From an uncultured Gemmatimonadota bacterium (GTDB lineage: Bacteria > JAAXHH01), in assembly GCA_951812955.1 (NCBI GenBank), contig OX638340.1, positions 800,001-864,000 on the forward strand: DNA of 64,000 nt. Reading direction: 5' to 3'. Made by a program: the position numbers and the translations under genes. Under the pieces are notes generated by a model, which was not told where the DNA came from, did not search any database, and saw only the letters and a list, made by a program, of their open reading frames with translations. Below, one piece after another: positions 9,514 to 64,000 of this stretch. Each line of letters opens with the position of its first letter. Position 1 is the first letter of the stretch.

Positions 9514-9514
9514 G

Positions 9515-21207: not shown

Positions 21208-21431
21208 CGTCTGCCGTTGGGTTTCACCTGCAGCATCATTAATTAGTGAAATTCGTATTAAACTAGTACCATAAATCCTACCAGACGTTACAAATAGTTG
21301 ATAGATTGACACCACATTTTACGATTTCCGGGAATCGAAGCCGATCAGGCGGGCTGAATGATCACGAATATGATGAGATGAACAAAAGTCAACCGTAGCA
21401 AGTCGTTTACGTTGAATGTGGGGATAGCGCT

Positions 21432-26488: not shown

Positions 26489-26502
<14 letters not shown>
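23977..26502 (-). CDS. polB: DNA polymerase II (family B, PolB)
   Basis: Exo motif LALDIETD; pol motifs [34 protein letters not shown]. Confidence 0.9.
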
Positions 26503-29446
<2,944 letters not shown>

Positions 29447-29476
29447 CCAGGTGACTCCGTAATACGTCTGGCACCT

Positions 29477-30481
29477 TCAGGGCCGGTAATGGTAGAAAGC
29501 GAGTTCTTCGTACTCCACGTTACTTTTAAGCGTCAGTCTGTGCGGGCTCGACACCCGGCTGATGATCTCTTTGTCCGCCAGCCATTCGCATACCGTCGTC
29601 ACGCCCCGGAGATTCATCTGGTTATCGAAGTATGTTTCGATTTCCGTGACCGAGCGGACCGAACCCTCCTCCGCCAGGTAATCGAGTATGGGCTGGAACA
29701 TTACAGGAATGCGCTCTTCCAGGTACGCCTCGATGCGCGTGAGGGCGCCGGCGATCGCTTCGCTGGAAACAGGCTGGTCGATCAGGCGGGTGTATACGGC
29801 ATCGAAAAAGTCCGGATTCAACCGAAGCGCCTGTTGGATGACTTCACGGCTGGCCAGTTGACTGTCGAGAAACACCTCAATCTTTGCCAGTCCGTTCACA
29901 CAGTGCAATATGTAAAGGAAACTGTAGTGAAGATCCTCCTTCACGTGAAACCACTTCTCGGCTTTGTACAGGGTAGGTATCACGAAAGCGCCGGCATGCA
30001 TGAGCTGCACCTGCCGGTCTCTCTCCTTAAGTTCCCCGATACCCTCGTACAGTTCGCGAATGGTTTCGTCCCGGGTAAACAGCAGGCGGCTTTCCGCGAA
30101 CGAGGCATGCATGAAGGAGCTTTGCAGGCCCCCTTCTATCATTTTCCTGAACGCGGAACGGGGCTGCATGAACACGTGAATGTATACGTCGTGTTCCAGG
30201 AGTGCCGCGCCTTCCGAGACCTCGTCGTCGTCCCTGCCTTCCTTGCGAAAAAGGTCCTTGTCGTCTCGTGTTACGACGATCAGGTCGATATCGGATTTCT
30301 CCCAGACACGGTCGGCGGAAAGGCTACCGAACAGAATCGCCGCAAGCACGTGGCGGTCCTGTTTCGCCTTCGCGACAAAGGCGTCGAGAGCTGCCTCGAA
30401 CCGCTGCTGTATAGACTGTGATGTGTTTTCCATCGAGGTATCCCGCCAGCCGAACAATTCTACCGCCCGGCCGTTTGACAT
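29477..30481 (-). CDS. nucleotidyltransferase-fold (Pol-beta superfamily; ANT/KNTase-like) protein
   Basis: GS...D.D NTase motif AAILFGSLSADRVWEKSDIDLIVV, followed by a ~200-aa helical C-terminal domain. Ends 30 nt upstream of uvrA on the same strand. Start is 30481 or 30433. Confidence 0.5.
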   Translation of the reverse strand: MSNGRAVELFGWRDTSMENTSQSIQQRFEAALDAFVAKAKQDRHVLAAILFGSLSADRVWEKSDIDLIVVTRDDKDLFRKEGRDDDEVSEGAALLEHDVYIHVFMQPRSAFRKMIEGGLQSSFMHASFAESRLLFTRDETIRELYEGIGELKERDRQVQLMHAGAFVIPTLYKAEKWFHVKEDLHYSFLYILHCVNGLAKIEVFLDSQLASREVIQQALRLNPDFFDAVYTRLIDQPVSSEAIAGALTRIEAYLEERIPVMFQPILDYLAEEGSVRSVTEIETYFDNQMNLRGVTTVCEWLADKEIISRVSSPHRLTLKSNVEYEELAFYHYRP

Positions 30482-32332: not shown

Positions 32333-33347
32333 TGTCTTTCAAAAACTTAACAAGAGATTTTCGCTCCGCCGTCGGGCCGTGTATTTCAATCCCCACTTCC
32401 GCCCATACCAGCGGCGTCGTGCCGTGTTCATCGTCTGTCGCGGCGGGATCGGCGCCGGATTCGACGAGCAACTTCGCGATCTCCCTGTTCCCGCATAGAT
32501 GGAGGGGCGTCTGCCCGAAATCCGCACGGGCGTTAGCATCCGCTCCCCAGTCCAGCAGCGCCCGGACCGTATCCTCCCATCCATGCTGAACCGCGGCGTG
32601 AAGTGGCGTGCCCACCACGGCGTGGACGCCGATCTTTCCCGAATATGCTGTGACACCCCCATCTCTTTTGTGGACCTGGCGTAGTTCGTCTGTCCTTCCA
32701 AGCGCCGCAAGCTGGCACGGGTCGGCCGGCGCGCCGCGCGCAATCAGGAATTCCGCGACCGCGCGGCACCGCTCCCCGCGGGAAAGGGCCGCGCCCAATG
32801 GCGTGTTGCCCTCGCTGTCGAGCGTATTCAGGCGCGCTTGGTGGTCGAGAAGCAGCCCGGCCGTTTCGACTGACATGGCCACGTGGAGGGGTGATACTCC
32901 GCCTAGGTCAGGGCGGGCCGCCGCTTCAGGATCTTCCGCGAGAATCGCACGAACGGTAGAGACGTCATCTAGCAGGCACGCGGCGTGGATGTCGACCCTG
33001 GCGCCCCGGTCCCGCAATAGAGCGGCGGCCTCAAGGTGTCCCCAGTGTGCGGCCAGGTGCAAGGCGCTCCAACCGCCGTAGGAATCGGCGCCGTGGTTCG
33101 GATCCGCTCCATTCCGCAGCAGCAATTCGATCACCCTCGTATCCCCGCGCTCGGCCGCCAGTTGTATAGGCACGGGACGGCCTCCCCAACGGGGATGGGC
33201 CACCGGTTCATTAACGATACCGGGCTCACGGGAAAGGACTTCTTCGACCTGCTCCGGGTCACCCTGCCAGATGGCGGCTCGCAGTCGTTCCTTCGCCGTC
33301 TCGCCGTTCCGGGCCGTCTGACCGCCGGGTTCAAGGGGAGTGGACAT
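32310..33347 (-). CDS. ankyrin-repeat protein
   Basis: ANK repeats (..SALHLAAHWGHLEAAALLRDRGARVD..; ..TPLHLCGNREIAKLLVESGADP..). Start chosen at MSTPLEP (ATG 33347, RBS AAGGAAGGA); the ORF is open to 33470. Confidence 0.8.
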   Translation of the reverse strand: MSTPLEPGGQTARNGETAKERLRAAIWQGDPEQVEEVLSREPGIVNEPVAHPRWGGRPVPIQLAAERGDTRVIELLLRNGADPNHGADSYGGWSALHLAAHWGHLEAAALLRDRGARVDIHAACLLDDVSTVRAILAEDPEAAARPDLGGVSPLHVAMSVETAGLLLDHQARLNTLDSEGNTPLGAALSRGERCRAVAEFLIARGAPADPCQLAALGRTDELRQVHKRDGGVTAYSGKIGVHAVVGTPLHAAVQHGWEDTVRALLDWGADANARADFGQTPLHLCGNREIAKLLVESGADPAATDDEHGTTPLVWAEVGIEIHGPTAERKSLVKFLKDITPVRKD

Positions 33348-33534
33348 CGGTCTATCCTTCCTTTCTCCATGTTCTGTCATCGAACGGTCGAACGATTCGT
33401 CGATGAATGGGTGTACGTTTACACGATCCAGCGTAGTGGAAAGGCTGGAGGGGAACGGTATTGGGCCCATGATCTGTCCGTCCGGGTTCCTGCCGGGATA
33501 GGTTTTTTCAGGCGACGGCTCTTGTTTTTCGGAG

Positions 33535-35843: not shown

Positions 35844-37577
35844 TCAGGAAACGGCACCGGCTTCCCGCAGACGGTCCGCGATGGACGCGTGCCCGTACCG
35901 TTCCGCCCAGGCGAGCGGTGTGGTCCAGGGTTCCCCATCGGGCTGAGGATCGGCACCGTGCTGGAGATACAGTTCGACCAGATCCTCGCGTGCCCAGCGG
36001 GACGCCCAGGCGAGCGGCGTGGAGTGGAGCAGCGTGTCCCTGCCTTCGAGCGTGGCGCCGTGGTCGAGAAACAGGCGGGCGAACTCGATCCGCTCGTCCT
36101 CTCTCAGCACCGGCTCTCCCCAGACCTTGCCCGTTGCCGCGATATGATGAAGGAGGGATGTGTCGCGCCGGCCCTTCACGTTCGGGTCCACCCCGTGGTC
36201 GAGGAACATGCGTACGATATCGGGGAATATGGATCGATCGAAATCACGGTACTGGCGATGGGGACAACAGGGCCAGAGACGAATAGGCTGGATGATCAGA
36301 CCGTACCACCGGGGGTCGTCCAGGGCCCAGTCCAGTTTGCGCAGGCACACGCCCACCACGCTGGGATCACCGCCGCAGGCGGCCCCCCAAAGAATCTCCT
36401 CGACCAGTTCAGGCTTGAGGCTCAGCGCCATGACCGCCGCAGAGGTATCGCATTCCAGGGCCGCACTGTCGGGAGTCATCGAACCGCCGTACCTGTAGAG
36501 CAGACGCTTCATGCGTTCGTCCCTGTTGTTGTAGGCGCGGCTCATGGGATCGCCAGACGCGTAAACGGCGGCGTTAGGATCGGCACCGCGATCCAGAAGC
36601 AGTTGCGCGATGTCGTACATCCCGTCGCCCGCTGCGATCCAAAGCGGTTCGCCCCAGTTGTATGTTTCTTCTTCCAGGGATTGTATTCGGTACCGCTGGT
36701 CCGGGTCCATGCCGAGATCGAGCAGCAGCTTCACCATCTCGTATCGTTTATGACGGACAGCATCACCCAGCAGGTGGGTTTCGGTTTCAATATCCGGTTC
36801 GAACTGGTCCTGGTGACTTTCCGCGATCTGACGTACGGCTTCCAGGTCTCCAAGCATGACACTCGTTCGAAGACTTCGCGGGGCCCCCGCGGTCATCAGG
36901 ATGCCCGCGGCCATGAAACAGCCTTCAGCCCGGCGCCTGTCCGTTGCGACGGTTTGTTCCGCAGCCAGCTCGAGCGGAGTCCGGCCCTCCAGGTTGGTCT
37001 TGCCCGTATCGGCGCTGGCAGTCAGCAGCGCTTGAACGAGACCGGGATAGCCGTGGCTGGCGGCGTGGTGCAGGACCGTGTTTCCGTTCTCGTCGCAGGC
37101 CTCCGCTAGTTCGGGCGTTTCGTGTATATCCCGCATCGCGCCCGCCACATCGCCATCCTCCACTTTTCGGGCGAGCAGAACGACCTCTGGGGAAACGGTC
37201 AGGTTCGGACAGAGGTTCGCCTCGCGTCTCCGCTCCAGTTCTTCATTGATTGTTTCTATGATATCACCGAATCCGCGGTCGCGAGCCATAGCCAGGGGCG
37301 TGGACGCGTCCCTGTGGGGATAGACCCCCTGGTTGGGATCGGCGCCCGCGGCCATGAGTGCGGAAACGGCTTCCGTCTGGCGGTTTACCACCGCGTGATG
37401 CAGGGCACGGTGCTCATCGAAAGAAGCCGTATCCACACCCACCAGGTGGGGTGCGACGGCCAGAATGGTATTAAGGCGTTTCATGTCTCCGGCGGCGGAC
37501 GCCTGGCACAGTTCGGCCACGGTGAAGACGCCGGAGGTCATCCCGTTCGTCATGATTCCTTCTCCTCGATTCGTCAT
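35844..37577 (-). CDS. ankyrin-repeat protein (577 aa)
   Basis: Many ANK repeats (..TVLHHAASHGYPGLVQALLTASAD..). Two alternative ATG starts (37577, 37553) created by a 24-bp tandem duplication; overlaps the upstream SRPBCC stop (ATGA). Confidence 0.85.
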   Translation of the reverse strand: MTNRGEGIMTNGMTSGVFTVAELCQASAAGDMKRLNTILAVAPHLVGVDTASFDEHRALHHAVVNRQTEAVSALMAAGADPNQGVYPHRDASTPLAMARDRGFGDIIETINEELERRREANLCPNLTVSPEVVLLARKVEDGDVAGAMRDIHETPELAEACDENGNTVLHHAASHGYPGLVQALLTASADTGKTNLEGRTPLELAAEQTVATDRRRAEGCFMAAGILMTAGAPRSLRTSVMLGDLEAVRQIAESHQDQFEPDIETETHLLGDAVRHKRYEMVKLLLDLGMDPDQRYRIQSLEEETYNWGEPLWIAAGDGMYDIAQLLLDRGADPNAAVYASGDPMSRAYNNRDERMKRLLYRYGGSMTPDSAALECDTSAAVMALSLKPELVEEILWGAACGGDPSVVGVCLRKLDWALDDPRWYGLIIQPIRLWPCCPHRQYRDFDRSIFPDIVRMFLDHGVDPNVKGRRDTSLLHHIAATGKVWGEPVLREDERIEFARLFLDHGATLEGRDTLLHSTPLAWASRWAREDLVELYLQHGADPQPDGEPWTTPLAWAERYGHASIADRLREAGAVS

Positions 37578-46567: not shown

Positions 46568-47650
46568 TCAGTCGGACAAAAGTTCCTGCAACCGATTGAT
46601 TACCAGGTCTACCTCTCCCGGTTGCAGCGTACCGAGTTTCACCCGGAAACGGCTGTTCCTGCACCAGGTTACGATGGAAGGTTCACCGTCAAGCAACAGC
46701 CTTTCGAATTCCAGGTCGGAACATCCAATCCGCTCGAGGTCGATTTCTACGGAGACCACGTCGCCGCTTCGCTTGACCGAGTTTACCAGGGAGGATGAGG
46801 CCAGCCCCTTTCGGATCGCCAGGCCCATGCGGTTGTATTCCCTGCGGACCGCGTCCTCGTCCCTTTCCATGATGTACTTTACCGCTGCGTAGATGCCGGC
46901 CAGCTCTTCCTTTCCTACCTTCATGGTTCGGCCAATGGCCCGGTTGGGATTGCCGTGGGCGGCACATCCCTCGATGATGGACCGCTTGCCGATTACGAGT
47001 CCGGTGGTCTGTGGGCCGCGAATCGCCTTTCCGCCGCTGGCGATTATGGCATCCACTCCCAGTTCACGGGTGAAATACCGGAAATTCGCTTTCGGAGGTA
47101 TACTGAAGGCCGCGTCAACGAGAACGGGTACGTTATGCCCGTGGGCGATGTCGACGATACGGTCAATGGGCAGCATGCGACCCCAGGGAGACAGCGTCAG
47201 CACGGCAGCCGTTCGTTCGTTGATACAAGCCGCAAGTTGTTCCTCCGTGGCGCCGCGCTCGTCTCCCATTTCCACGATCACCGCGCCGGGGGACTGGATG
47301 GCGATGTCCTCGTAAAACCGCGCGCAGCGGTGCACGATGACCTCGTTCTTCATGCCGGACGTATCGGGCAGTCTTTCGATCTTTTCCGGGTCCGTTCCGG
47401 CCATGCAGGCGGCGACCGCCAGCGCGATCCCACCCGCGGCACCGCAGCTCACGTACGCGGCCTCGTTTCCGGTCATTTCGGCAATGGCCTTGCCGACACG
47501 TGTCTGCATCTCGTGCAGGTTGACGTACTGGCGGGACGCTTCGACCATGGCTTCCACCGCGCAGGGCCACATGATCGATCCGCCGAACCGCGTGTAGTTG
47601 TCGGCGGCGTTTATGAAAGGGCGGACGCCCAGTTCCTCGTAAACATCCAT
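46568..47650 (-). CDS. SelA-like PLP-dependent enzyme (L-seryl-tRNA selenium transferase / DgaE-related fold); shorter than true SelA
   Basis: ...YVNLHEMQTRVGKAIAEMTGNEAAYVSCGAAGGIALAVAACM... and ASGGKAIRGPQTTG (PLP-lysine region) resemble the SelA/DgaE family. It is 360 aa, whereas SelA is ~460. Confidence 0.45.
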   Translation of the reverse strand: MDVYEELGVRPFINAADNYTRFGGSIMWPCAVEAMVEASRQYVNLHEMQTRVGKAIAEMTGNEAAYVSCGAAGGIALAVAACMAGTDPEKIERLPDTSGMKNEVIVHRCARFYEDIAIQSPGAVIVEMGDERGATEEQLAACINERTAAVLTLSPWGRMLPIDRIVDIAHGHNVPVLVDAAFSIPPKANFRYFTRELGVDAIIASGGKAIRGPQTTGLVIGKRSIIEGCAAHGNPNRAIGRTMKVGKEELAGIYAAVKYIMERDEDAVRREYNRMGLAIRKGLASSSLVNSVKRSGDVVSVEIDLERIGCSDLEFERLLLDGEPSIVTWCRNSRFRVKLGTLQPGEVDLVINRLQELLSD

Positions 47651-49452: not shown

Positions 49453-50343
49453 ATGGCGTCCAATACAGGCGAATTCGAATCCTTCCTGGCGATGTTTGAA
49501 CGCGGTGATTTGGAGGCCGCAAGCGCCTATGTAGAAAGCCATCCCCTGCTGGCCGATTACGATGGCATCCAGGCCCACCCTCTACTTCGGGAGTTCGTTC
49601 GCAGGAATTGCGGCCACTGCTACAAATCGTCCCATCGGGCCATCGCAGATCTCCTTATTCCTGATCGGATTCGAGCCTTTCGGAATGACGTGATGGCCGA
49701 CCGGACCGATAACGTCAAGTCACGACTGAACGCGGAACCCAATCTCGTGCATGCAGAGTTTACCGGCGGCCGGGGAATCGCCCGAGCGATACACCACTGG
49801 CGGTCCATCCCTGTCGGCAAGCTGCTGCTGGACGGCGGGGCCGACGTGAATGCCCTTACGACTGTAGGTTGTGCCGGGGAAACACCCCTCATGATGCAAC
49901 TTCGTTTCGGTACCGTGGAAGGCGTGCGCTTTCTTTTGGCAAACGGCGCGGAAACGAATCTGGGCGGACTCAAGCATTCGCCGAGCACATCGATGGCCGC
50001 GGGGCTCAAGCTGCTGCTTCGGCACGGATGGGACATCAACGAGCGGGTAGGCGGCCGCACCCTGCTGCACCATGACGCCAATCACGGTCACGGTAAGCGC
50101 GTTCAACTGCTGCTGGGGCATGGCGCCGATCCCAACATTAAAGATGCCGAGGGTCGAACCGCGTTGCACCTGGTCAGTGCGAGAGGGGTCGGCGCGGAGA
50201 CGATCCGCGCCCTGGTGGAAGCCGGCGCACTCGTGGATGCCCGTGATGATCAAGATAGAACTCCATTAGACCTGGCCGCTTCGGCCAGGAGCCAGGCAGC
50301 GCTCCGAGCGCTTCAGAAGCTTGGCGCCCCTGGCGCCCGGTGA
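49453..50343 (+). CDS. ankyrin-repeat protein
   Basis: ANK repeats (..TPLMMQLRFGTVEGVRFLLANGAE..; ..TALHLVSARGVGAETIRALVEAGALVD..). Confidence 0.85.
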   Translation: MASNTGEFESFLAMFERGDLEAASAYVESHPLLADYDGIQAHPLLREFVRRNCGHCYKSSHRAIADLLIPDRIRAFRNDVMADRTDNVKSRLNAEPNLVHAEFTGGRGIARAIHHWRSIPVGKLLLDGGADVNALTTVGCAGETPLMMQLRFGTVEGVRFLLANGAETNLGGLKHSPSTSMAAGLKLLLRHGWDINERVGGRTLLHHDANHGHGKRVQLLLGHGADPNIKDAEGRTALHLVSARGVGAETIRALVEAGALVDARDDQDRTPLDLAASARSQAALRALQKLGAPGAR

Positions 50344-50384: not shown

Positions 50385-52085
50385 GTGTCCCAAAAACACG
50401 CTTTGGAAATCTGTGGAAAATACCCTGAACGCGCAGAACGCATGGCCTTCCCAGGCAAGTTCCTTGGGCGGGTACATCTCGATGCGTGCCGGACCGGTTG
50501 CATGATTTGTCCGGGGCTGGGCCCGGAGCTCGGTCGCCCCTATTATGACGACCGCTGGGGCGACGATACCGACTGGATCGACGGCGAATCCGCCTGGACT
50601 CTGTTCAAAGCAAGCACGGCAGGTGACCTGGAAGTTATCGCAGCACTCCTCGACGAAGACCCGCGTCTCGTGAATGCGATGCACTGGTACACCCAGCCCG
50701 TACACCTGGCCGCCCGGCACGGGCACGCCGAAGCGACGGAGTTGCTTCTCGCTCGGAACGCCGACCCGGGGCTGGTTATTTTCGATTCGACCTGGTCAAG
50801 CCTGCTCGAGAACACACGATCCCGTGGGTTTGAGGACGTAGTGGAAGTGATTTCCGGTGCGATGCGAGATCGATTCGGCTACGATCCCGCGTTCATGGAG
50901 ATAGCCGGGCTGATTGAGAACAGCAACGTTGAAATGGTTAAAACGGCGCTGAATGACAATCCCGAACTCGTTGATCGATCCGACGCGGCAGGAAACAACG
51001 GTCTTCACCTCGGTGTGATAAATGGCCGTAAAAACCTGGTCGAACTGTTTCTCGAACGCGGTCTGCCCATAGATTCACGACGTGCTGACGGGAAAACACC
51101 GCTGACACTGTCTTTCGACACGGGTTTCGGACAACATCCACCGGACCCGAAACTGGGTATAACCGAGAATCTTTTGATGAATGGTGCGGATTACGCCATC
51201 ACGGCAGCCAGTTACCTGGGTGATCATGCCCGGGTTCGTTCGATCCTCGATGAGAATCCATCGGCTGCCGGCCGCGACGCGTCGATGAAGAGCCCCCTGG
51301 CGTACGCGGCTAGAGCGGGGCACGAAGATATTGCCCGGATGCTGCTTGACGCAGGAGTCGATGGCCATGTCGTGGACGAAGCGCTTTTTGAAGCTGTATG
51401 GTGTAAGCACGCGGGTGTTGCTGACCTGTTGCTGGAATACGGAGCCAACCCGAACGTGGAATTGGATTCTTGCGGATATGCCGCGGGTACCGATGAACAC
51501 GCGATACGGGATCTGCTCGTGCGTAATGGCGGGGTGACTCCACCATATTGGGAACTGGGTCAAAACGAACTCCGTCAGCTGGTGGATTGCAGAGCCGCAA
51601 GGGTCCGAGATCCCTACCTGATTGCGAATGTGCTCGAATCCGAGGACGAGAAACTGATCGACAGGTTACTGGATGGTGATCCACTTGCACTCGGCCGCCT
51701 GGAGGAACTTCAATACCTGCCGGGATGGGGTGACCATGCTGTGATTACGCGCAAACTGGTCGCGGCGGGGCTCGATCCGAACCGAAGGACATTCGAAGGC
51801 CAGACCTATCTTCACGTCTGTGCCAGGCAGGGCTGGGAGAAGACGGCTCAGGCATTAATCGAACAAGGTGCTGCGGTAAACGTACTGGATGAGAAGGAAG
51901 GCTGGACACCGCTGGCGATCGCGGTCAAAAACGGCCGGATCGGTATGGTTCGGCTGTTGTTGGAACGCGGCGCGGATCCCTACCTGGCCGATTGGCCATG
52001 GACTCGACCGCTAACGGTTGCAGAGGAGATTGATAACGAAGGAATTACAGAACTTTTACGTCTCTACAAAGGCAATACTGCATAA
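50385..52085 (+). CDS. ankyrin-repeat protein (566 aa)
   Basis: More than 10 ANK repeats (..QPVHLAARHGHAEATELLLARNADP..; ..TPLAIAVKNGRIGMVRLLLERGADP..). Confidence 0.85.
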   Translation: MSQKHALEICGKYPERAERMAFPGKFLGRVHLDACRTGCMICPGLGPELGRPYYDDRWGDDTDWIDGESAWTLFKASTAGDLEVIAALLDEDPRLVNAMHWYTQPVHLAARHGHAEATELLLARNADPGLVIFDSTWSSLLENTRSRGFEDVVEVISGAMRDRFGYDPAFMEIAGLIENSNVEMVKTALNDNPELVDRSDAAGNNGLHLGVINGRKNLVELFLERGLPIDSRRADGKTPLTLSFDTGFGQHPPDPKLGITENLLMNGADYAITAASYLGDHARVRSILDENPSAAGRDASMKSPLAYAARAGHEDIARMLLDAGVDGHVVDEALFEAVWCKHAGVADLLLEYGANPNVELDSCGYAAGTDEHAIRDLLVRNGGVTPPYWELGQNELRQLVDCRAARVRDPYLIANVLESEDEKLIDRLLDGDPLALGRLEELQYLPGWGDHAVITRKLVAAGLDPNRRTFEGQTYLHVCARQGWEKTAQALIEQGAAVNVLDEKEGWTPLAIAVKNGRIGMVRLLLERGADPYLADWPWTRPLTVAEEIDNEGITELLRLYKGNTA

Positions 52086-53145: not shown

Positions 53146-54372
53146 ATGATGAACGCCACCATCAGACAATTGCCCGATCAGCCGAATCTGCGACTACTCG
53201 AAAACGAGGCATCTGAACTGCTCGAGAATGGCTCCTGCACTACACAGGCCGAGGCACGTTTCAAACTAGCGCACCTGTACGGTTTTAAGAGTTGGCCGAA
53301 ACTGGAAGCCTACGTATCATCCATCGGATCCATGGGAGAACTCGAACAGGCAATCCAGGACGACGACGTCGATAGAGTGAAGCGGATATTGGACGAGGAC
53401 CCGGGGCTGATTCACCGTGAAGGGCACTGGGTCAAACGCCGCAGGCACAACGGCTACCTGCCGCTCGCATACGCTGCGTTTTTCGGTAAGGTAAACGTGC
53501 TGGCGGCACTGGTCGAGGCCGGTTCGAATGTACGCGCTGGGGAGGACAAGGCGTTACGAGCCGCGGCGTGTTTCGACAAAAACCTCCCCGCGGTCGAATT
53601 ACTGATCCGCCATGGAGCAGACCCAAACGCATCGACTACATCGCCTTCCGGTGTCCCGTACCGGGTGATCGATTATCCATGCATGACGTTGGCGCCCAAG
53701 ATGTTAGCCCACCTGGTTGAGAAGGGCGGTATTTTGAAGCCGGCCAATGCCGGGATGGTACTCGCGACGAATGAACGCAGACCCCGGGAGAAAGCCGCCT
53801 GCCTTCGCGTGATGGAACATGCGGGTATCCCGTTTCCGGATTCCCCTCCGATGGCCCTTCATCTCAGGGACTCGAACCGTCTGGAATCGCATCTGCTCAG
53901 GGATCCCGGATTGCTCTCGAGGTCGTTCAGCGAAGAAGACATCTTCCCAACGGGTTTCGAAATCAAGCGTCCTACGCCCTACGCTTACGCAACACCGCTG
54001 ACCGGTGGGGTCTCCCTGCTTCACATGGCTGTCGAGTTGTGTGACGTGGAACTGGCGCGGTGGCTCATCGAGCATGGCGCCGACGTTAATGCCGCCGCGG
54101 GGACAGACGACGAGGGATACGGCGGATGGACGCCCCTGTTCCACGCCATGGTCACGCTGCGCGTCCCACGTGGTTTTGCCGAAATCGTCGATCTGCTCCT
54201 GGATCATGGCGCCGACCCGGAAGTGCGAGCGTCCCTGCGTAAACCGACTCCAGAGGGTGGAGAAGCCACCTGGCGCGACGTTACGGCGGCCGATTACGCC
54301 CGAAGATTCATCTACACGGATTTAGTCAATCACGACGCGCTGCAGCGGGTCATGGTGGCCGGTGCGAAATAG
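53146..54372 (+). CDS. ankyrin-repeat protein
   Basis: ANK repeats (..LPLAYAAFFGKVNVLAALVEAGSNV..; ..SLLHMAVELCDVELARWLIEHGADVN..). Confidence 0.85.
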   Translation: MMNATIRQLPDQPNLRLLENEASELLENGSCTTQAEARFKLAHLYGFKSWPKLEAYVSSIGSMGELEQAIQDDDVDRVKRILDEDPGLIHREGHWVKRRRHNGYLPLAYAAFFGKVNVLAALVEAGSNVRAGEDKALRAAACFDKNLPAVELLIRHGADPNASTTSPSGVPYRVIDYPCMTLAPKMLAHLVEKGGILKPANAGMVLATNERRPREKAACLRVMEHAGIPFPDSPPMALHLRDSNRLESHLLRDPGLLSRSFSEEDIFPTGFEIKRPTPYAYATPLTGGVSLLHMAVELCDVELARWLIEHGADVNAAAGTDDEGYGGWTPLFHAMVTLRVPRGFAEIVDLLLDHGADPEVRASLRKPTPEGGEATWRDVTAADYARRFIYTDLVNHDALQRVMVAGAK

Positions 54373-54400: not shown

Positions 54401-56284
54401 ATGGACCCCGCCATGACTCCGAAAACGCCTTCTACCAGTCTACAGGTTGGTACCGTGTCCGATCACGATTATGCCCCCTCGAAGAACTGGCCCTACCCGG
54501 TCACAAAGTCACAAATCATGGACGAGGTCCGGAAACTGTCATTGGCCATCCAGGACGGTCGTGCCGAAGCCATGGCAGAAAAAAACAGGTATGGAAGTTC
54601 AGCTGATCCGTCATCGTTCTCCCCGGACGACGCACGGAACGTACTCGCCCTAAGTTACGGATTCCCGGGCTGGACACAGGTAGAACGGTACTTCGATACG
54701 GTAGACAGGTATTCGCGCGACCCTAACATGGAACCCACGCCAACCAATTCGGATGACGCGTCTTCGCTCGCCGATGTTTTCCTTCGTCTTGCCTGCCTGA
54801 CGCAGGGCGTCCAGGACCACCCGTCTCGGTGGGCAAGGGCCAGGGCCTTGCTCGATGACCATCCGAAACTATCCCGGTTGAATATCTACACCGCTTCGGT
54901 CGCCGGCGACGTTTCAGCCGTGGGCGAATACCTGGAAGCGGATTCTGAACTGGCTACGACGCCTGGCGGCCCCCATGACTGGGAGCCCCTGCTATACCTG
55001 GCGTATTCCCGTCTGGACCGCGAGACCTCGGGGCATTCCGCCGTCGAAATCACCCGGTTGCTCCTCTCCCATGGCGCCGACCCGAACGCGGGCTACCTCT
55101 GGGCGGGTTTCCCCTGCCCTTACACCGTACTGACCGGAGTCTTCGGCGAGGGTGAGAACGGTCCGGTCAGGTGTCCTCCACACCCTAACTGCTGCAAACT
55201 GGCGGAAATCCTGTTGGAGGCCGGGGCCGATCCCAACGACGCCCAGACACTATACAACAGGATGTTCAGCCGCGACGACGAACACCTTCGGTTCCTGTTC
55301 ACGCACGGCCTGGGGAAGGACCGGGACCGGCCCTGGCACCGGTTGTTGGGCGAACAATCCCGCGGCTGGGTGAGCAGTCCCGCGAGCATACTGGCCTACC
55401 AGCTTCAGTGGGCAGCCCGATGGAACTACCTGGATCGCGTCAAGTTACTGGTCGAAAACGGCGCCGACGTAAACAGGCCCTCCAACCGGCCCGATGCGCG
55501 ATCACCTTACCGCGAGGCCGTGTTCCACGGAAACGAGTCCATCGCCGAATACCTGGCAATCTGCGGCGCGGAGACGTTTGTGCTGGACGACCTGGACCGT
55601 TTCGCCGGCGCGTGCATCAGTGGAGACCTGGGTCGTGCCCGCGCGATGCTCGCACGCGATCCGTCACTCGTTGAAAAACTTGGAGAACGCGGGAACACGC
55701 TCATGGAGAACGCCGTTGGGTCGGACAACCGGGACGCGGTCCGGCTGATGTTCGAACTGGGCTTCGACTTGAAGAAATCCGGTATGCAAGAAGCGGCCCG
55801 TTATGGCCACCTGGACATGATCAAACTGCTGGTCGAGCTTGGGACTGATGTTTCCCAAACGGACGCGGGCCACGAGATCTGTGCCCTGGGCTATGCCAGC
55901 CATTACCAGCAAAATAACGTGATCGACTACCTGGCGCAGTTCGCCGGGATACACAGAGCAGTGCAGTCGGACTTGTTGGAACGGGTCGGGGAACTGCTTG
56001 ACGAAGATCCCGGTCTCGTACACGCTCGAGATACCAGCGGCAACTCGCCGCTGCACTGTCTCGACGTGGACAACAGGATGGAAGATACGGAGGAGATACT
56101 CCGTCTGCTCGTAACGCACGGAGCCGATGTCAATGCCAGAAACAAGGAAGGCCTGACACCGCTCGACAGGCTGGAGCTTCTTTCCGGTTTCAGTCGAAGA
56201 GACGGTTTGGCGGAACTGTTGCGCGGGTACGGGGCCGTGGAGTCAGACGCCGCCGACGGGTCAAAGAACCGTCCGGAGTCGTGA
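54401..56284 (+). CDS. ankyrin-repeat protein (627 aa)
   Basis: Many ANK repeats (..EAARYGHLDMIKLLVELGTDV..; ..SPLHCLDVDNRMEDTEEILRLLVTHGADVN..). Confidence 0.85.
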   Translation: MDPAMTPKTPSTSLQVGTVSDHDYAPSKNWPYPVTKSQIMDEVRKLSLAIQDGRAEAMAEKNRYGSSADPSSFSPDDARNVLALSYGFPGWTQVERYFDTVDRYSRDPNMEPTPTNSDDASSLADVFLRLACLTQGVQDHPSRWARARALLDDHPKLSRLNIYTASVAGDVSAVGEYLEADSELATTPGGPHDWEPLLYLAYSRLDRETSGHSAVEITRLLLSHGADPNAGYLWAGFPCPYTVLTGVFGEGENGPVRCPPHPNCCKLAEILLEAGADPNDAQTLYNRMFSRDDEHLRFLFTHGLGKDRDRPWHRLLGEQSRGWVSSPASILAYQLQWAARWNYLDRVKLLVENGADVNRPSNRPDARSPYREAVFHGNESIAEYLAICGAETFVLDDLDRFAGACISGDLGRARAMLARDPSLVEKLGERGNTLMENAVGSDNRDAVRLMFELGFDLKKSGMQEAARYGHLDMIKLLVELGTDVSQTDAGHEICALGYASHYQQNNVIDYLAQFAGIHRAVQSDLLERVGELLDEDPGLVHARDTSGNSPLHCLDVDNRMEDTEEILRLLVTHGADVNARNKEGLTPLDRLELLSGFSRRDGLAELLRGYGAVESDAADGSKNRPES

Positions 56285-58353: not shown

Positions 58354-59874
58354 ATGCCGTCCCTGCCTTCACAACCCGATATACGCCATCTCAGTCTGCA
58401 GGCGAAAACGCTTCTGAAGTCCGCGCGCAGCGGCGAAGAGCATGCCGTAGACAGAATCCGCTCGGCCATCGGAGTGCGACGCGAACGCCTCGTGCTGTCG
58501 GACGCCTACCATGCCATCGCCAGGGAATACGGGTTCAGGTCCTGGCCCCATCTCAAGATACACATCGAAATCGTCGCTAGAAACCTGGACGAACAGCGCG
58601 AGATGTTTCTGTCATCGGCATGGCTGTGGGGCGATCGGCAGAGAGCCGAGGCCCTGCTCGCTACCGCTCCGGAACTCTCCAAGGGAAACATCCATGCCGC
58701 CTGCGCCGCCGGGGACGTGGATGCCGTCGCAGGTATCCTGGAGGCCGACCCCGCTTCGGCCACGACGAAGGGCGGTCCGAGAGACTGGCCCCCGATACTC
58801 TACGCGACGTGGTCCTGCTTTCTTTCCGAACGTGCCGACGCCATGGTCCGAGTCCTGGAATTGCTGCTGCGGCACGGCGCCGACCCGGACAGCTACTGGG
58901 TGAACGAGTCGGACTGGAAAGAGTCGGCCCTTTACGGATGCGTTGAAAACAACTGCGTACCGGCGGCCAGGGTGCTGGTGGACGCGGGCGCCAACCCAAA
59001 TGACAACGAATCCCTCTACCACGCCTGTGAGAAATTCAACCTGGAACTGCTCGACACGGTCGCGGCGAACGGACTGGACGCGGAAGGCGTCTCCTATTGC
59101 ATCAAGCATGCCATGGACATGACATGGACCGAGGCCGTCATGTGGTTTCTCGACCAGGGCGCCGATCCCAACGCCATCCATCCCGCCGACCGGGAGACCT
59201 CCCTTCACTGGGCGGTAAAGAGAAACTGCACAGCAGACGTGATCAGTGCGCTCCTGGACGCCGGAGCGGACCCCAACGCACGCACGTCGACCGGGAAGAG
59301 TACGGCCCTCGGGATCGTCGGCTGGACGCCCCTCGATTTCGCCTTCCGGCTCGGTCGCGGGGAGGTCGCCGCGCTCCTACAGCGGAATAGCGCCGAACCG
59401 TCCCCCATGTCCGAATACGACCGCTTCGTAGTCGCGTGCGCCAATACGGACCTCGATATCGTGGAGCAACTGAAAGACCGTCACCTGGCCAACTTGACTG
59501 ACGACGACCGGACCCTCATCAGCCACGCGGCCCAGATGGACAACTGGGCGGCGGTCCGTCTCATGGCGGACCTGGGCTGGCCGGTAGACGCCCGGGGCTG
59601 GATGGATGCCACGCCCCTCTACTGGGCCCTGTGCAAAGGCCATGCCGAAATGGTCGATTTCCTGCTTCGGCGGGGTGTCTCCATCGAACCCATCGGCGGA
59701 TACTTCCAGGATCCGGTCCATGCCGTGATTCATTGCCAGTGGAATGGGGACAAAAGCGGGTACCCGGTCGCGCTCGGTCGACTGCTCGACCATGGCCTCG
59801 GCGTTCCGGAAGGACGCTATCCATGCGGCAATGTCGCGATGGACGAGGTGCTGTCGCGCTACGTCGAAAACTGA
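58354..59874 (+). CDS. ankyrin-repeat protein (506 aa)
   Basis: ANK repeats (..TSLHWAVKRNCTADVISALLDAGADPN..; ..TPLYWALCKGHAEMVDFLLRRGVS..); RBS GAAGGAGG. Confidence 0.85.
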   Translation: MPSLPSQPDIRHLSLQAKTLLKSARSGEEHAVDRIRSAIGVRRERLVLSDAYHAIAREYGFRSWPHLKIHIEIVARNLDEQREMFLSSAWLWGDRQRAEALLATAPELSKGNIHAACAAGDVDAVAGILEADPASATTKGGPRDWPPILYATWSCFLSERADAMVRVLELLLRHGADPDSYWVNESDWKESALYGCVENNCVPAARVLVDAGANPNDNESLYHACEKFNLELLDTVAANGLDAEGVSYCIKHAMDMTWTEAVMWFLDQGADPNAIHPADRETSLHWAVKRNCTADVISALLDAGADPNARTSTGKSTALGIVGWTPLDFAFRLGRGEVAALLQRNSAEPSPMSEYDRFVVACANTDLDIVEQLKDRHLANLTDDDRTLISHAAQMDNWAAVRLMADLGWPVDARGWMDATPLYWALCKGHAEMVDFLLRRGVSIEPIGGYFQDPVHAVIHCQWNGDKSGYPVALGRLLDHGLGVPEGRYPCGNVAMDEVLSRYVEN

Positions 59875-60110: not shown

Positions 60111-60386
60111 ATGGCCCGCATGGTCCAATGCGTAAAGCTCAACAAAGAACTCGAAGGTCTCGAATTCGTACCATTCCCCAACGAGCTTGGCCAGCGCATC
60201 TACGACAACATTTCCAAAGAGGCCTGGCAGATGTGGATCCACCATTCGGTCATGGTCATCAACGAGTACCGCCTGAATCTCGCCACGACCGAAAGCCAGG
60301 AAATCTACGACCGGCACCTGGAGGAGTTCCTTTTCGGTGAAGGCGCCGAAATGCCGCCGGGATACCGCCCTCCCCAGACGAAATGA
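60111..60386 (+). CDS. yggX: Fe(II)-trafficking / oxidative-damage protection protein YggX
   Basis: MARMVQCVKLNKELEGLEFVPFPNELGQRIYDNISKEAWQMW...FLFGEG aligns along its length with E. coli YggX (91 aa). RBS GAGGAGG 6 nt before ATG 60111. Confidence 0.8.
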   Translation: MARMVQCVKLNKELEGLEFVPFPNELGQRIYDNISKEAWQMWIHHSVMVINEYRLNLATTESQEIYDRHLEEFLFGEGAEMPPGYRPPQTK

Positions 60387-60419: not shown

Positions 60420-61868
60420 ATGAAACGTGATGATGGCATCCTCCTCATTTCCTGCTATGAACTGGGTCATCAGCCCTTCAGCCTCGCTTCCCCCGCGGCC
60501 CGCCTGAAGTCCGAAGGATACGAAGTCTCCGTAGTCGATGCCGCGATCGAGCCGATCCCGGAAGATGCCGTCCAGCGTGCCGGGTTTATCGGCATCTCGG
60601 TTCCCATGCATACGGCCATGCGGGTGGGCATGGACCTGTCCGGCCGAATCCGGAACCTCAATCCGGACGCGCACCAGTGCTACTACGGACTCTACGCCAC
60701 GCTGAACGCAGACTATCTCCTGTCCCACGGCGCCGATTCGGTAATCGGAGGCGAATTCGAACAACCGCTCTGCGACCTTGTGGATAGATTGTGCGCGGGT
60801 GATGCCGCCATGCCGGACCCCGATCCGTCCACCGCACCATCCACCGCTCCATATCTTTCACGCCAGACCTGGCTGGTCCCGGACCGAGGGAGTCTGCCCG
60901 CTTTGAAACGGTACGCCCAGCTGGACACCGGAACGGAGACGCTGCCCGCCGGTTATACCGAGACCACGAGGGGTTGCCTCCATACCTGTCTTCATTGCCC
61001 GATCACGCCGGTGTACAACGGCCGGTTCTTTGCCGTACCTGCCAACGTCGTGCTCGCCGACATAGCCCAGCAGGTGCGCATGGGCGCCCGCCACATCACC
61101 TTCGGGGACCCGGATTTCCTGAACGGTCCGACCCATGTCCTTCGCATTCTGCGCAGGCTGAAGGAAACCCATCCCGGAATCACCTTCGATTTCACCACCA
61201 AGATCGAACATATCCTCCGGCACGCGGGGTTTTTCCCCGAGGCGAAGGCGCTCGGCGCGCTTTTCGTCGTATCGGCCGTCGAATCGGTCAGCGATCTCGT
61301 GCTCATGCGCCTGGAGAAAGGTCACACTCGGGAGGACATCGTCAGGGCGCTCGCTATCCTCCGAGACGCGGACCTGCCCATGCGGCCTTCGCTGGTGGCC
61401 TTCACACCCTGGACGACGCTGGACGACTATCTGGAATTGCTGGATTTCGTCGAAGTTCACGACCTGGTCGATCACATCGACCCGGTGCAGTACACCATAC
61501 GACTGCTCGTGCCGCCCGGTTCGGCCCTGCTGGAAACAGAGGATGCCAGGACCTGGATCGGCAAGCTGGATGAAGCCGGGTTTACTTACGAGTGGAGCCA
61601 TTCCGATGCTAGAATGGACCACCTGCATCGGCGGGTATCCCGTCTTGTGGAAGGAGCCGACGCTTCGGGGGAGGAGCGGGACAACCGGAGCATCTTTCAC
61701 CGGATCCGGCGCCTCGCCGCGGAGACGGCCGGAGTCGAAGCGGTCGAAGGACCCACGGAACGGCCCTTTGAAGTCCTGTCGCCGAAACGGCGACGGATCC
61801 CCAGGCTGACCGAGGCCTGGTTCTGCTGAGCGGAGCCCACGGCGAGCCGGAAAGGCTCGTTCATTTGA
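60420..61868 (+). CDS. B12-binding-domain radical SAM protein with C-terminal CUAEP tail, where U is a predicted selenocysteine encoded by in-frame TGA 61827-61829 (CUAEP/CCAEP-tail family)
   Basis: Radical SAM CxxxCxxC (RGCLHTCLHC) after an N-terminal B12-binding-like domain. The annotated ORF stops at TGA 61829 right after ...EAWFC, but the frame continues: TGA-GCG-GAG-CCC gives C-U-A-E-P-TASRKGSFI, then TGA at 61866-61868. Confidence 0.75.
61843..61859 (+). ncRNA. candidate bacterial SECIS hairpin (CGAGCC-GGAAA-GGCUCG) 14 nt downstream of the recoded UGA
   Basis: Perfect 6-bp stem with a 5-nt loop, read directly. The position, with the apex about 24 nt after UGA, is compatible with SelB-dependent SECIS elements. 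Confidence 0.4.
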
Positions 61869-61884
61869 TCTTTACGGGTGAAAA

Positions 61885-63084
61885 TCAGGAAGCATAACCG
61901 TCCTGGACGGGGCCGCAGTGCTGCGACCGGGCGGGCGCCCGATACTGCACGCGGTGATCGGGCGTCTCGATGCGTATGCCGCCCTGCTGTTTCGAAGTAA
62001 GACAATGATCGAGGATGCCGCATACGGTCAACGTCCGTTCAACCGGGATCGGTGATACGCCGGTCTCGAACATCTCGTCGATCCTCGACACAAGGCAGGC
62101 CGAGTAGGTAACCGGAGGAGTGGGCGGCAGGAAGAACTGGGTCGAACAGGGCTCAGGTTCGTCTTTGAGGCGGGCGGCGAAACAATAGTCGCCGATCGCG
62201 CCATTGAGCATGAGCAGCGTGGTCTGAAGACCGTCCATGTGTTCGATGAAGTAGGCGGCCGGCTCAGTGGCGAGCCGGTGCAATTCGCCCGTCCCCAGCA
62301 GGTCCTGCGTGCGGCCATCCTGCTCGGGCAGTCCCTTCGGACTGTCACAGCGCGACAGTGCCGATTCCAGCAATTCCTTCGAGTAACGTCCCTGGTCGCC
62401 GGCCTCCCACACCGCGTCCCCCACGATCATCTGGACAGACCTGACGCCCGTCTCGCCACCCCTGCGACGCTCGATCATGCACTGCATGGCCTCGAGTGCG
62501 TGATAGTCCATGGCGTCCGAACCGCCGACCCCTACCATCAGCGCTTCGTCGATATCGCATTCCAGCGGCAGTTCGAGGTCGGGCAGCCGCCATGTGACCG
62601 GAAGGCTCGAACCCGCGAGCACTGGAAAACCGAGCCGCTTGGAATCGGCCACCATTTCCAGGCCCCTTGCAAAGCTGTAGGAGAGATTCTTGTCGTTGTA
62701 GACCGGCACTGAGCGGCCGTCCTGCTCGAAAACTTCGACGCAGGCCTTGAACATCTCGTAGCGCGGGTAGAGTTTCTGTCCCTTCTCGTTGTCCGAATAG
62801 TCGCCGTGTTCGCAGATGATCAGGATCCCGTCCACCGCCAGGGAATCCCCGCCGCACCGCAGGGCTTCGGCTATGGTGGGATAGACCTCGAAACCGAACT
62901 CGCGGGCGCGGTCTGTGCTCTGGTCGCCTTCGGGACGCTGATCCACGTAAAGCGACACAACCTCGACGTCCGGCCTGCGCCAGCGGCCCGAATTCGGATA
63001 GCCGACGAGGAACCGGTCCGCGAAATGCTGCGAGTGGGAGAGATAGGTGTAGATTGAACTGATGACGGCGAGCCGCTTCGGCAT
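61885..63084 (-). CDS. hypothetical protein (399 aa), tandem paralog 1 of 2; function unknown
   Basis: Long ORF, convergent with the radical SAM gene. Paralogous to the next gene, sharing blocks EHGDYSDNEKGQKLYPRYEMF, GSSLPVTWR and LEAMQCMIERR. Weak resemblance to a degenerate Rossmann-like oxidoreductase N-terminus. Confidence 0.5.
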   Translation of the reverse strand: MPKRLAVISSIYTYLSHSQHFADRFLVGYPNSGRWRRPDVEVVSLYVDQRPEGDQSTDRAREFGFEVYPTIAEALRCGGDSLAVDGILIICEHGDYSDNEKGQKLYPRYEMFKACVEVFEQDGRSVPVYNDKNLSYSFARGLEMVADSKRLGFPVLAGSSLPVTWRLPDLELPLECDIDEALMVGVGGSDAMDYHALEAMQCMIERRRGGETGVRSVQMIVGDAVWEAGDQGRYSKELLESALSRCDSPKGLPEQDGRTQDLLGTGELHRLATEPAAYFIEHMDGLQTTLLMLNGAIGDYCFAARLKDEPEPCSTQFFLPPTPPVTYSACLVSRIDEMFETGVSPIPVERTLTVCGILDHCLTSKQQGGIRIETPDHRVQYRAPARSQHCGPVQDGYAS

Positions 63085-63087
63085 GGT

Positions 63088-64000
63088 TCAATATCTCCAG
63101 AAGGTGGAGTTTTCAGGCGCGGGGTATTCGACGTCGAGATGGGGCGTTTCCAGCCTTACCTGTCCTTCGTGCAGGCTGTCGACGCCGGCCGCGGTCAGTC
63201 CCGATGTCAGGAGGGTCCGCTCGACGGGATAGGCGGCCTCGCCGGACAGGAACATCTGTTCCACGTTGTTGACCTGCGGCGAGAAGAAGTTGGCCAGCGA
63301 GGTGCGCGCAGGCGGCATAGGCAGGTACATCTGGGTCGACAGCGGTTCGCTGCGCCCCGACAGGCGAGCCGCGAAGTTGAAGTCTTCGACCAGCCCGCTA
63401 AACAGGATCATGGTGCACTTGACCCCGTCGCGGTGCTCGTAAGTGTAGGCGACGGGATCCTCCACCATCCGCTTCATCTCGTTGATGGTCGGGAAGACGT
63501 TGTTGAACCCGTCGCGGGATGGTTTCAGCGTGTGACTGCGACACAGTGCCGCTTCGAAGAGTTCGCGGGACCACACTTCGTCGTGGAAAGCCTCCCAGAA
63601 TGCCTCGAGCCGACGGGCGTGGAGCCAGGAGACGCCCGACTCGCCGCCCTTGCGCCGTTCGACCATGCATTGCAGGGTCTCCAGGCCGTGGAAATCGTAA
63701 CTGTCGACCCCGCCGTAGCATACGCACACGGCTTCTTCGACCTCGGCGTGAAGCGGCATGTCGACTGAGGGCGTCCGCCACGTGACCGGCAGGCTGGATC
63801 CGGCCATGAAGGCAAAACCCAGGCGCTGCGCGGTATCGTACATTTCCTTGGCCCAGTCCCAGTTCCACGACAGGTGCTTGTCGTTGAATATGGGAACGGT
63901 ACGGCCGCTTCGCTCATAGACTTCCACGATCTCGCGGAACAGTTCGTAGCGTGGATAAAGCCGTTGTCCCTTCTCGTTGGTTTGATACTCGCCGTGTTCT
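63088..64000 (-). CDS. hypothetical protein, tandem paralog 2 of 2; N-terminus beyond window end
   Basis: The frame stays open to position 64000 (...EHGEYQTNEKGQRLYPRYELFREIVEVYERSGRTVP...). The ORF-track start at 63927 is an internal GTG. Paralogous to 61885-63084. Confidence 0.5.
   Translation of the reverse strand, partial: EHGEYQTNEKGQRLYPRYELFREIVEVYERSGRTVPIFNDKHLSWNWDWAKEMYDTAQRLGFAFMAGSSLPVTWRTPSVDMPLHAEVEEAVCVCYGGVDSYDFHGLETLQCMVERRKGGESGVSWLHARRLEAFWEAFHDEVWSRELFEAALCRSHTLKPSRDGFNNVFPTINEMKRMVEDPVAYTYEHRDGVKCTMILFSGLVEDFNFAARLSGRSEPLSTQMYLPMPPARTSLANFFSPQVNNVEQMFLSGEAAYPVERTLLTSGLTAAGVDSLHEGQVRLETPHLDVEYPAPENSTFWRY

Follow-up and report, generated by a model that had tools for sequence, protein, structure and literature searches.

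Selenocysteine predicted at an in-frame UGA of a CUAEP-tail radical SAM gene in a Gemmatimonadota bacterium, with a tentative mechanistic link to ArsL

The question raised by this locus is where one of its genes ends. In a 64,000-nucleotide stretch of DNA from an uncultured Gemmatimonadota bacterium (assembly GCA_951812955.1, contig OX638340.1, positions 800,001 to 864,000; this whole stretch is called the window, and positions are counted from its first letter), an open reading frame (ORF) for a radical S-adenosylmethionine (SAM) protein runs on the forward strand from an ATG at 60420 to a TGA at 61827-61829, which gives 469 codons and the end ...LTEAWFC. Beyond this TGA the same frame reads GCG GAG CCC and onward, that is AEPTASRKGSFI, up to a second TGA at 61866-61868. 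A first-pass annotation had noticed this continuation, which the rechecked sequence bears out, and had proposed that the UGA encodes selenocysteine (Sec) in the tail of a protein of the CUAEP/CCAEP-tail family. Here, we weigh this proposal and ask what the resulting enzyme may do. We put the probability that the UGA is recoded and that the gene belongs to this family, taken together, at about 0.9 or higher. The predicted product has 482 residues and ends ...PRLTEAWF-Cys469-Sec470-AEPT..., because relatives carry Cys or UGA at the aligned site, because a covarying hairpin downstream of the UGA is lost in the Cys forms, and because the 12 codons after the UGA look like coding sequence.

The codon was followed through two sets of relatives. 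A scan that took one genome per species showed a relative to be encoded in at least 569 of them; the best 80 loci were examined, and 120 homologous proteins from databases formed the second set. The motif WF-C-[codon]-A-E-P is present in 79 of the 80 loci, and the remaining locus runs off the end of its contig. The codon after WFC is TGA in 65 loci (the window included) and TGC or TGT in 14. In the window, the C-[U/C]-A-E-P motif reads ...AWF-C-TGA-A-E-P-T... at 61824-61841, where the Cys469 codon TGC and the putative Sec470 codon TGA occupy 61824-61829 (+), and it aligns with the WFCCAEPT of the Cys forms. Among the database proteins, 20 of 120 read WFCCAEP, so that Cys-containing homologs do read CCAEP at this position, as had been anticipated. 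Another 99 of the 120 end exactly at WFC and are gene-caller truncations.

The stretch after the UGA also has the properties of translated sequence. Across phyla the peptide begins with AEPT, which is usually followed by xxQ[F/L][G/D]PL. When the window is aligned with its nine closest relatives (77-95% protein identity), five columns of the 42-nucleotide tail vary, all of them by synonymous third-codon-position changes or by an exchange of TGA and TAA at the true stop, and therefore the tail is translated. If the UGA were an ordinary stop and the protein ended at Cys469, both the retention of AEPT across phyla and the purely synonymous variation in the closest clade would speak against it; orthologs do not end functionally at the UGA. 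The full coding sequence thus predicted spans 60420-61868 (+), with 482 codons including Sec470, and its tail past the UGA, AEPTASRKGSFI, occupies 61830-61865 (+). A cultured organism with a complete genome, Thermomicrobium roseum DSM 5159, carries the TGA form on its megaplasmid (L081, NC_011961.1; gene at 8953-10389, TGA at 10387-10389). The corresponding RefSeq protein WP_012643191.1 bears the family name and is annotated as ending at the UGA, past which the frame reads AEPLEDPSGPVASQVRMVDQPLR and a hairpin occupies the family register.

The family had been named in the first-pass annotation, and the model exists. The read-through protein matches NF040546, "CUAEP/CCAEP-tail radical SAM (seleno)protein", with 690.5 bits (E = 1e-207; cutoff 500), and the UGA-truncated product with 671.5 bits, the tail adding about 19 bits. 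NF040546 was named by Haft, and one sentence of a preprint describes the family as uncharacterized (10.1101/2022.07.06.499078), in agreement with the first pass. This preprint of 2022 is the single mention of the CUAEP family that we found in the literature; it argues that the CU motif is rare and signals contact with a heavy or soft atom (10.1101/2022.07.06.499078). The family does not appear in the prokaryotic selenoprotein table of a 2026 review (PMC13188914). An exact-protein lookup returned no record of the window protein, and close relatives in GenBank, from metagenome-assembled genomes (MAGs) of Gemmatimonadota, already carry the family name. The window gene is a member of a curated family and not the founder of a new one.

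What would direct Sec to this UGA is a hairpin that follows it. A perfect 6-bp hairpin, CGAGCC-GGAAA-GGCTCG, lies at 61843-61859 (stem 61843-61848/61854-61859, loop GGAAA 61849-61853); with a further two G-U pairs on its flanks it spans 61841-61861 (+). Thirteen nucleotides separate the UGA from the stem, which begins at the 14th, and in this the first-pass description was correct. The hairpin alone is only suggestive, because a perfect 6-bp hairpin starts 11-20 nucleotides downstream of 1.3% of the TGA triplets in the window, or of 0.5% when a G in the first two loop positions is also required; the comparative data decide. Among the 28 predicted genes of the window that end in TGA, only the radical SAM gene combines a strong, correctly spaced hairpin with an adjacent Cys and an open downstream frame. 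No convincing further selenoprotein candidate was found in the window, either among TGA-split ORF pairs or among TGA-ended genes with hairpins.

Over the 65 TGA loci, the 42 nucleotides from the UGA onward align essentially without gaps. A stem of positions +17 to +22 with +28 to +33, counted from the U of the UGA, is formed in nearly all of them, and the window hairpin lies in the same register. Its pairs are exchanged in a compensatory manner: 17-33 is CG in 24 loci, AU in 14, GC in eight and GU in four, 20-30 is GC in 29 and AU in 26, and 21-29 is CG in 33 and UA in 20. When an 8-pair helix was tested, 81% of cells paired, the two outer pairs contributing most of the unpaired ones, and the covariation score was 0.50 vs 0.26 for shuffled controls; none of 500 shuffles reached the observed value, and registers slid by 1-3 nucleotides scored 0.20 or less. 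C22, the loop G24 and G28 are invariant among the TGA loci. Where the codon is Cys (14 loci), pairing in these columns is 40%, no different from shuffles or slid registers. Because the stem covaries, the loop G is invariant and the element is absent from Cys-codon loci, the hairpin at 61843-61859 is assigned, on these comparative grounds, as the selenocysteine insertion sequence (SECIS) element that the first pass had suspected, and not as a terminator. In three of the Cys-codon loci (L029:7384-7425, L039:3957-3998, L058:7393-7434), 5 bp of the stem survive in the same register as a decayed remnant. Such remnants suggest that these are recent Sec-to-Cys conversions and that Sec would be the ancestral state.

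The competing explanation holds that the UGA is an ordinary stop after Cys469 and that the hairpin is the intrinsic terminator of an operon formed by the upstream yggX and the radical SAM gene. A simple consensus scan indeed rates 61841-61861 as terminator-like, with eight pairs and then CATTTGATCT. As a genuine stop, TGA is also the most frequent codon in the window, ending 24 of 48 ORFs with 150 or more codons (the first pass had cited the one at 18651-18653), and selA, selB, selD and tRNA-Sec are all absent from the 64-kb window. The scan and the missing machinery weigh against Sec at this codon, as do two further points: the window loop GGAAA departs from the family norm AGUUN, with the invariant C22, G24 and G28 retained, and Rfam holds no matching SECIS family (whole window at gathering thresholds; a permissive search of 61780-61920 gave chance matches only, E > 1). 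The frequency of TGA stops also means that UGA is not reassigned genome-wide. On the other side, the stem tracks the register of the UGA in the TGA loci, where the true stop falls anywhere from -1 to 194 nucleotides beyond the stem and the ORF extends at least 15 nucleotides past it in 25 of 65. At least six T in the next 10 nucleotides, as a terminator would have them, occur in just three of the 65, and the hairpin is missing from the Cys-codon genes, which would still need a terminator. The ordinary stop with a terminator is contradicted by these comparative data, that is by the register, the Cys loci and the conserved AEPT, and we regard it as highly improbable. The outcomes that the first-pass annotation had named beforehand as contrary to its proposal, such as orthologs that terminate at the UGA or a tail without a family model, did not occur among those tested.

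As with other bacterial SECIS elements, SelB-GTP-Sec-tRNA(Sec) would bind the hairpin while the ribosome stands at the UGA, and this machinery would be encoded outside the window. The first-pass annotation had likewise found no Sec genes here, and a closer search agrees: there is no tRNA gene of any kind and no selD in the window, and the ORF at 46571-47650 (-), which has a weak Pfam match to SelA, is a DgaE-type lyase (179 bits for selA_rel, 34 bits for true SelA). Two class V aminotransferases at 4583-5968 (+) and 7113-8408 (+) are SufS-like, below threshold, and were rejected as Sec machinery; one of them has a twin-arginine translocation signal and resembles PvdN. For T. roseum, a SelD tblastn search of the plasmid collection, which does not hold its chromosome, showed no Thermomicrobium among the best 60 of 168 matches.

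The relatives supply a link to Sec synthesis that the window does not contain. In the TGA-form Blastocatellia loci L028, L030 and L035, a selD gene (324 bits, cutoff 125) lies 1.5-2.5 kb from the radical SAM gene in divergent orientation, and this selD has itself an in-frame TGA at the canonical Cys/Sec position of its active site (...SCAG-TGA-AAKL). In the related locus L020, the radical SAM gene has TGC and selD has TGT at the active site. Two unrelated genes thus switch between TGA and Cys together, as predicted by UGA-to-Sec recoding. The selD of L030 is at 3427-4458 (-), and the corresponding region is about 2800-4500 in L028, L030, L035 and L020. In this subclade, selD is divergent from an operon of ATP-grasp, radical SAM and Nfu genes and is accompanied by a MerA/RclA-like, flavin adenine dinucleotide (FAD)-dependent disulfide oxidoreductase and an EgtB/SenA-like gene.

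If the tail is translated, the next question is what it does in the enzyme. The radical SAM motif C186-x3-C190-x2-C193 is read directly from the sequence at 60975-60998 (+), and the domain matches Pfam Radical_SAM (PF04055) with 46.7 bits. These three cysteines are invariant in 121 of 121 sequences, and in the family alignment only they, Cys469 and then U/C470 are invariant. A Rossmann-type, B12-binding-like domain is predicted N-terminal to it, at residues ~9-120 (60444-60779, +), and holds Cys12 and Cys87, which are kept in 89% and 97% of the homologs, respectively, and are both missing from the ArsL-family sequence discussed below. The B12-binding label of the first pass holds in part: the fold predicted for a homolog belongs to this class, whereas the match to Pfam B12-binding (PF02310) stays just under threshold (30.5 vs 32.1 bits). 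That homolog is P0054, a natural Cys form 56% identical to the window protein, whose AlphaFold2 model has a predicted local distance difference test (pLDDT) of 93 and a predicted template modeling (TM) score of 0.91. Its WFCC segment reaches a pLDDT of ~78-91 and in the model is docked, not disordered. The first pass had placed the Cys-Sec pair at the extreme C-terminus, which is not the case, as twelve residues follow Sec470. A sequence search of the PDB gave no close relative (best 9ccb_A, E = 4e-4).

After NF040546, the second-best NCBIfam match of the window protein is the ArsL model NF040542, with 322 bits (321.8) and coverage of model positions 1-407 of 423. Plasmid-borne ArsL-family genes of Bacillota share ~37% identity with the window protein over residues 1-403, and in a joint alignment the CC of the ArsL tail RCCLKC stands opposite C469-U470. 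ArsL forms the C-As bond of the antibiotic arsinothricin (10.1101/2024.02.01.577332). It is a canonical CxxxCxxC enzyme with a non-canonical cleavage of SAM to methylthioadenosine (MTA) and a 3-amino-3-carboxypropyl (ACP) species, and its RCCLKC tail binds As(III) and has no site for an auxiliary cluster (10.1101/2024.02.01.577332; 10.64898/2026.04.29.721666). Deletion of this tail abolishes formation of the C-As bond and leaves SAM cleavage intact (10.1101/2024.02.01.577332; 10.64898/2026.04.29.721666), and Fe/S content is unchanged by it (10.1101/2024.02.01.577332).

The domain order could also be read in another way, as that of a class B, cobalamin-dependent radical SAM methyltransferase in which the tail is accessory. 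Such enzymes combine a B12-binding-like N-terminal domain with a radical SAM domain, and the cobalamin enzymes TsrM, OxsB, MgmA, CysS and TokK are structural neighbors of the P0054 model, which also resembles MiaB. However, the best structural match is AprD4, which has a class B-like fold and is not known to use cobalamin. The Pfam B12-binding score falls short, no class B NCBIfam model reaches 40 bits vs 322 for ArsL, and neither "cobalamin" nor "B12" occurs in the text on the in vitro reconstitution of ArsL (10.1101/2024.02.01.577332). We consider a class B methyltransferase quite improbable.

The window protein has one [4Fe-4S]/SAM site, formed by C186, C190 and C193, at which SAM would, by analogy with ArsL, be cleaved to an ACP species. 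A thiophilic atom other than arsenic would be brought into the active site by the Cys-Sec (or Cys-Cys) dyad, perhaps with the participation of Cys12 and Cys87; alternatively, the dyad itself would be the nucleophile. A small molecule resembling an amino acid would result, and in some lineages an adjacent ATP-grasp L-amino-acid ligase would convert it further. The YggX encoded upstream, or Nfu elsewhere, would keep the oxygen-labile cluster supplied or repaired in hosts that are largely aerobic. That the protein is ArsL-like, with a Cys-Sec arm that delivers a thiophilic atom to the SAM/[4Fe-4S] site or acts there as nucleophile, is the account we tentatively favor, at somewhat less than an even chance.

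Several points count against this mechanism. The ArsL score of 321.8 bits is below the NF040542 cutoff of 450, the third Cys of RCCLKC has no counterpart in the WFCUAEPT tail, where only the vicinal pair aligns, and the CUAEP family carries an extra variable linker of ~50 residues compared to ArsL. The family has been described as uncharacterized, and in the window itself yggX is the only linked neighbor. Moreover, tblastn searches of the 80 loci and the window found no ArsR, MIP, ACR3, ArsC, ArsD or ArsN1, and for ArsM one weak methyltransferase match, in L017. Arsenic is therefore unlikely as the substrate. The CUAEP family appears, from its sequences, to have the enzymology of ArsL and one partner gene in common with it and not its arsenic context.

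This partner is an ATP-grasp ligase with an L-amino-acid-ligase C-terminal domain, which is found near CUAEP genes in about 16-19 loci from several phyla. A homologous ATP-grasp gene (26% identity, E = 1e-17) recurs in the ArsL-family loci of Priestia, Alicyclobacillus and Bacillus. These loci (L082, L083 and L084, from plasmids of Priestia, Alicyclobacillus and Bacillus cereus, with genes for RCCLKC tails) hold a larger set that includes an AhpD-like carboxymuconolactone decarboxylase, ATP-grasp, ArsR, in part ArsM, an MFS transporter or MIP channel, a CobW-type GTPase, and ArsN1 or GNAT. This set exceeds the three-gene arsQML cluster described for Burkholderia. Around the T. roseum gene, the accessory genes for GNAT and MFS proteins do not recur in other loci and a pyridoxal-phosphate aminotransferase recurs only in close relatives, and all three were dropped as evidence.

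A more specific version of the ArsL analogy, on the doubtful side in our estimate, is that the CUAEP family consists of ArsL-type heteroatom alkylases that make a carbon-chalcogen or carbon-metalloid bond other than C-As. ACP could, for example, be transferred to Se (or S, Te, Sb) held on the Cys-Sec dyad, although we would not rate this transfer as likely. It is similarly doubtful, though conceivable, that the product is a new seleno- or metalloid amino acid which the L-amino-acid ligase joins into a peptide in some lineages. The selD beside the operon in the one Blastocatellia subclade, which is kept in L020 where both genes have Cys, hints at selenium as a substrate. That L020 retains selD hints that selenium serves for more than Sec, in the pathway of the radical SAM enzyme or in a selenoneine-like one; this selD could equally serve the neighboring EgtB/SenA-like gene.

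The tail could instead be a redox arm, as the first-pass annotation had suggested with the label of speculation. The Cys-Sec pair would then cycle between selenenylsulfide and selenol/thiol as in thioredoxin reductase (TrxR), without binding a substrate, and would feed electrons or a hydrogen atom to the radical SAM site or resolve a covalent intermediate. The GCUG tail of TrxR is characterized by its vicinal Cys-Sec pair, borne on an extension of the C-terminus. Here too the dyad sits on such an extension and can be swapped with Cys-Cys, as in TrxR orthologs, and the selD-linked loci have the FAD-dependent disulfide oxidoreductase near the radical SAM gene. Furthermore, Sec is generally favored for redox roles (PMC13188914). 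Against this, ArsL, the nearest characterized homolog, binds its substrate with the aligned CC tail; the dyad is not the extreme C-terminus, since the conserved AEPT and at least nine further residues lie behind it; and the dyad segment is docked in the homolog model, in which a flavoprotein fold is absent. A TrxR-like arm is not the best-supported reading of the dyad, and a redox cycle of the Cys-Sec pair strikes us as unlikely, if worth keeping in mind. Its proposed task as a donor of electrons or hydrogen, or as a resolver of an intermediate, is unlikely to the same degree.

The genes next to the radical SAM gene bear on yet another role for the thiols. In the window, a yggX-type gene (Fe(2+)-trafficking/oxidative-damage-protection; PF04362 126.8 bits, PRK05408 128.8 bits) at 60111-60386 (+) lies 34 nucleotides upstream on the same strand, with its likely start at Met residue 10 of the listed ORF, and the two genes are probably co-transcribed. 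The yggX stop, TGA 60384-60386, is in frame with the ATG at 60420, 36 nucleotides downstream; there is no sign of read-through at this TGA, where a hairpin is absent and the YggX models stop. YggX is encoded directly upstream of the radical SAM gene in 33 of 80 loci, often with a 4-nucleotide overlap (Gemmatimonadota/Latescibacterota, Chloroflexota), and Nfu/NifU adjoins it in 18 of 80 (Blastocatellia, Rokubacteria, Poribacteria, Ignavibacteriales). The two sets are disjoint, so that 51 of the 80 loci have a gene for Fe or Fe-S delivery beside the radical SAM gene.

This association would be explained if the tail together with Cys12 and Cys87 ligated a second Fe-S cluster, perhaps one that is consumed in catalysis as in LipA and MiaB. 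The fold neighbors include MiaB, four conserved thiol or selenol groups exist besides the cysteines of the SAM cluster (C12, 89%; C87, 97%; C469; U470), and there is a precedent for rebuilding, as NfuA rebuilds the sacrificial cluster of LipA. However, C12 and C87 are not invariant, and we know of no precedent for a vicinal Cys-Sec pair as ligands of one cluster. ArsL-family loci are without Nfu and YggX, and the association may simply reflect cluster upkeep in aerobes. Deletion of the homologous ArsL tail, as mentioned, leaves Fe/S content unchanged (10.1101/2024.02.01.577332). A second cluster is improbable in our view. The link with YggX and Nfu may thus be upkeep of an oxygen-labile cluster in aerobic hosts; it may also, less likely, point to a consumable auxiliary cluster.

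The remainder of the window gives an impression of the host. Two paralogous genes without a Pfam or NCBIfam match, at 61885-63084 (-) and 63088-63927 (-), converge on the radical SAM gene, with a gap of 16 nucleotides between its true stop and the stop of the first paralog. Across the closest clade the pair recurs downstream of the radical SAM gene, with 17 copies in 10 loci. These closest loci come from MAGs labeled Gemmatimonadetes or Latescibacterota, and isolate names (APA_bin, IRC1_bin and Plut_, for example) point to sponge or coral holobionts as their likely origin. Relatives at roughly 81-82% identity are OZ253560.1 and OZ245326.1. At least nine ankyrin-repeat genes are present in the 64 kb, at 18964-21315 (-), 30764-32329 (+), 32313-33470 (-), 35847-37577 (-), 49453-50340 (+), 50385-52082 (+), 53146-54369 (+), 54401-56281 (+) and 58354-59871 (+). 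Among them are unusual fusions, of sigma-70 regions 2 and 4 with ankyrin repeats (784 residues) and of a bacterial globin with ankyrin repeats (522 residues). This richness fits a symbiont and is typical of sponge symbionts. Finally, 23980-30481 (-) holds in tandem a family B DNA polymerase, a UvrA-like ABC ATPase (985 residues) and a Pol-beta-type nucleotidyltransferase, which may form a repair or defense module.

Recognition of the recoded UGA restores the functional end of a protein that gene callers cut at this codon in ~83% of the database homologs. The CUAEP family is large, with at least 569 species-level genomes, mostly with the Sec form, and by organism names it is common in Thermomicrobia, Ktedonobacteria, Blastocatellia, Nitrospira, Gemmatimonadota and sponge symbionts. 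These host lineages are generally regarded as aerobic. Aerobes rarely retain selenoproteins, according to the 2026 selenoproteome review (PMC13188914). The existence of the gene will not surprise a specialist; what is gained is a mechanistic lead for a large, uncharacterized selenoprotein family of largely aerobic lineages, as its sister relation to ArsL yields a testable hypothesis that combines a tail-borne substrate with non-canonical SAM cleavage. New here are the formal covariation test of the family SECIS, the clade-specific variant of SECIS and tail, the finding that ~83% of the members are Sec forms truncated in databases, the linkages to YggX/Nfu, to ATP-grasp and, in one subclade, to selD, and the explicit hypothesis based on ArsL. 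If the heteroatom-alkylase reading were true, the family would represent a widespread and largely aerobic pathway to organoselenium or organometalloid natural products.

Among known systems, the window gene agrees most closely with the NF040546 family itself, with which it shares the WFC[U/C]AEPT tail, the CxxxCxxC core and the layout of UGA plus hairpin. The family norm is a SECIS loop AGUUN and a distal tail TxxQ[FL]GPL, whereas the clade of the window has GGAAA and TASRKGSFI; otherwise it is an ordinary member. ArsL resembles it in a homologous whole core, in a C-terminal extension with a vicinal dithiol and in a related ATP-grasp gene near both families, and differs in that Cys12, Cys87 and the YggX/Nfu context belong to the window family. 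AprD4 (PDB 6fd2), TsrM, OxsB and MgmA are the best fold matches to the homolog model (E 1e-19 to 1e-17, TM ~0.6-0.7), but their identity is just 14-19% and they have no Cys-Sec tail; the dehydration and methylation chemistry of AprD4 and the class B enzymes is not implied. The Gly-Cys-Sec-Gly tail of TrxR is similar in its adjacent Cys-Sec near the C-terminus, exchanged for Cys-Cys in some orthologs; TrxR has the fold of a flavoprotein disulfide reductase, whereas here a radical SAM protein carries at least 12 residues after a dyad that is apparently docked. Other selenoproteins with a CU motif, namely HgcA, proteins of the SAO system, some MerT and the KCU-star family, share the rare Cys-Sec dipeptide with the window protein, but their folds and contexts are unrelated, and mercury or organometallic genes are not seen here.

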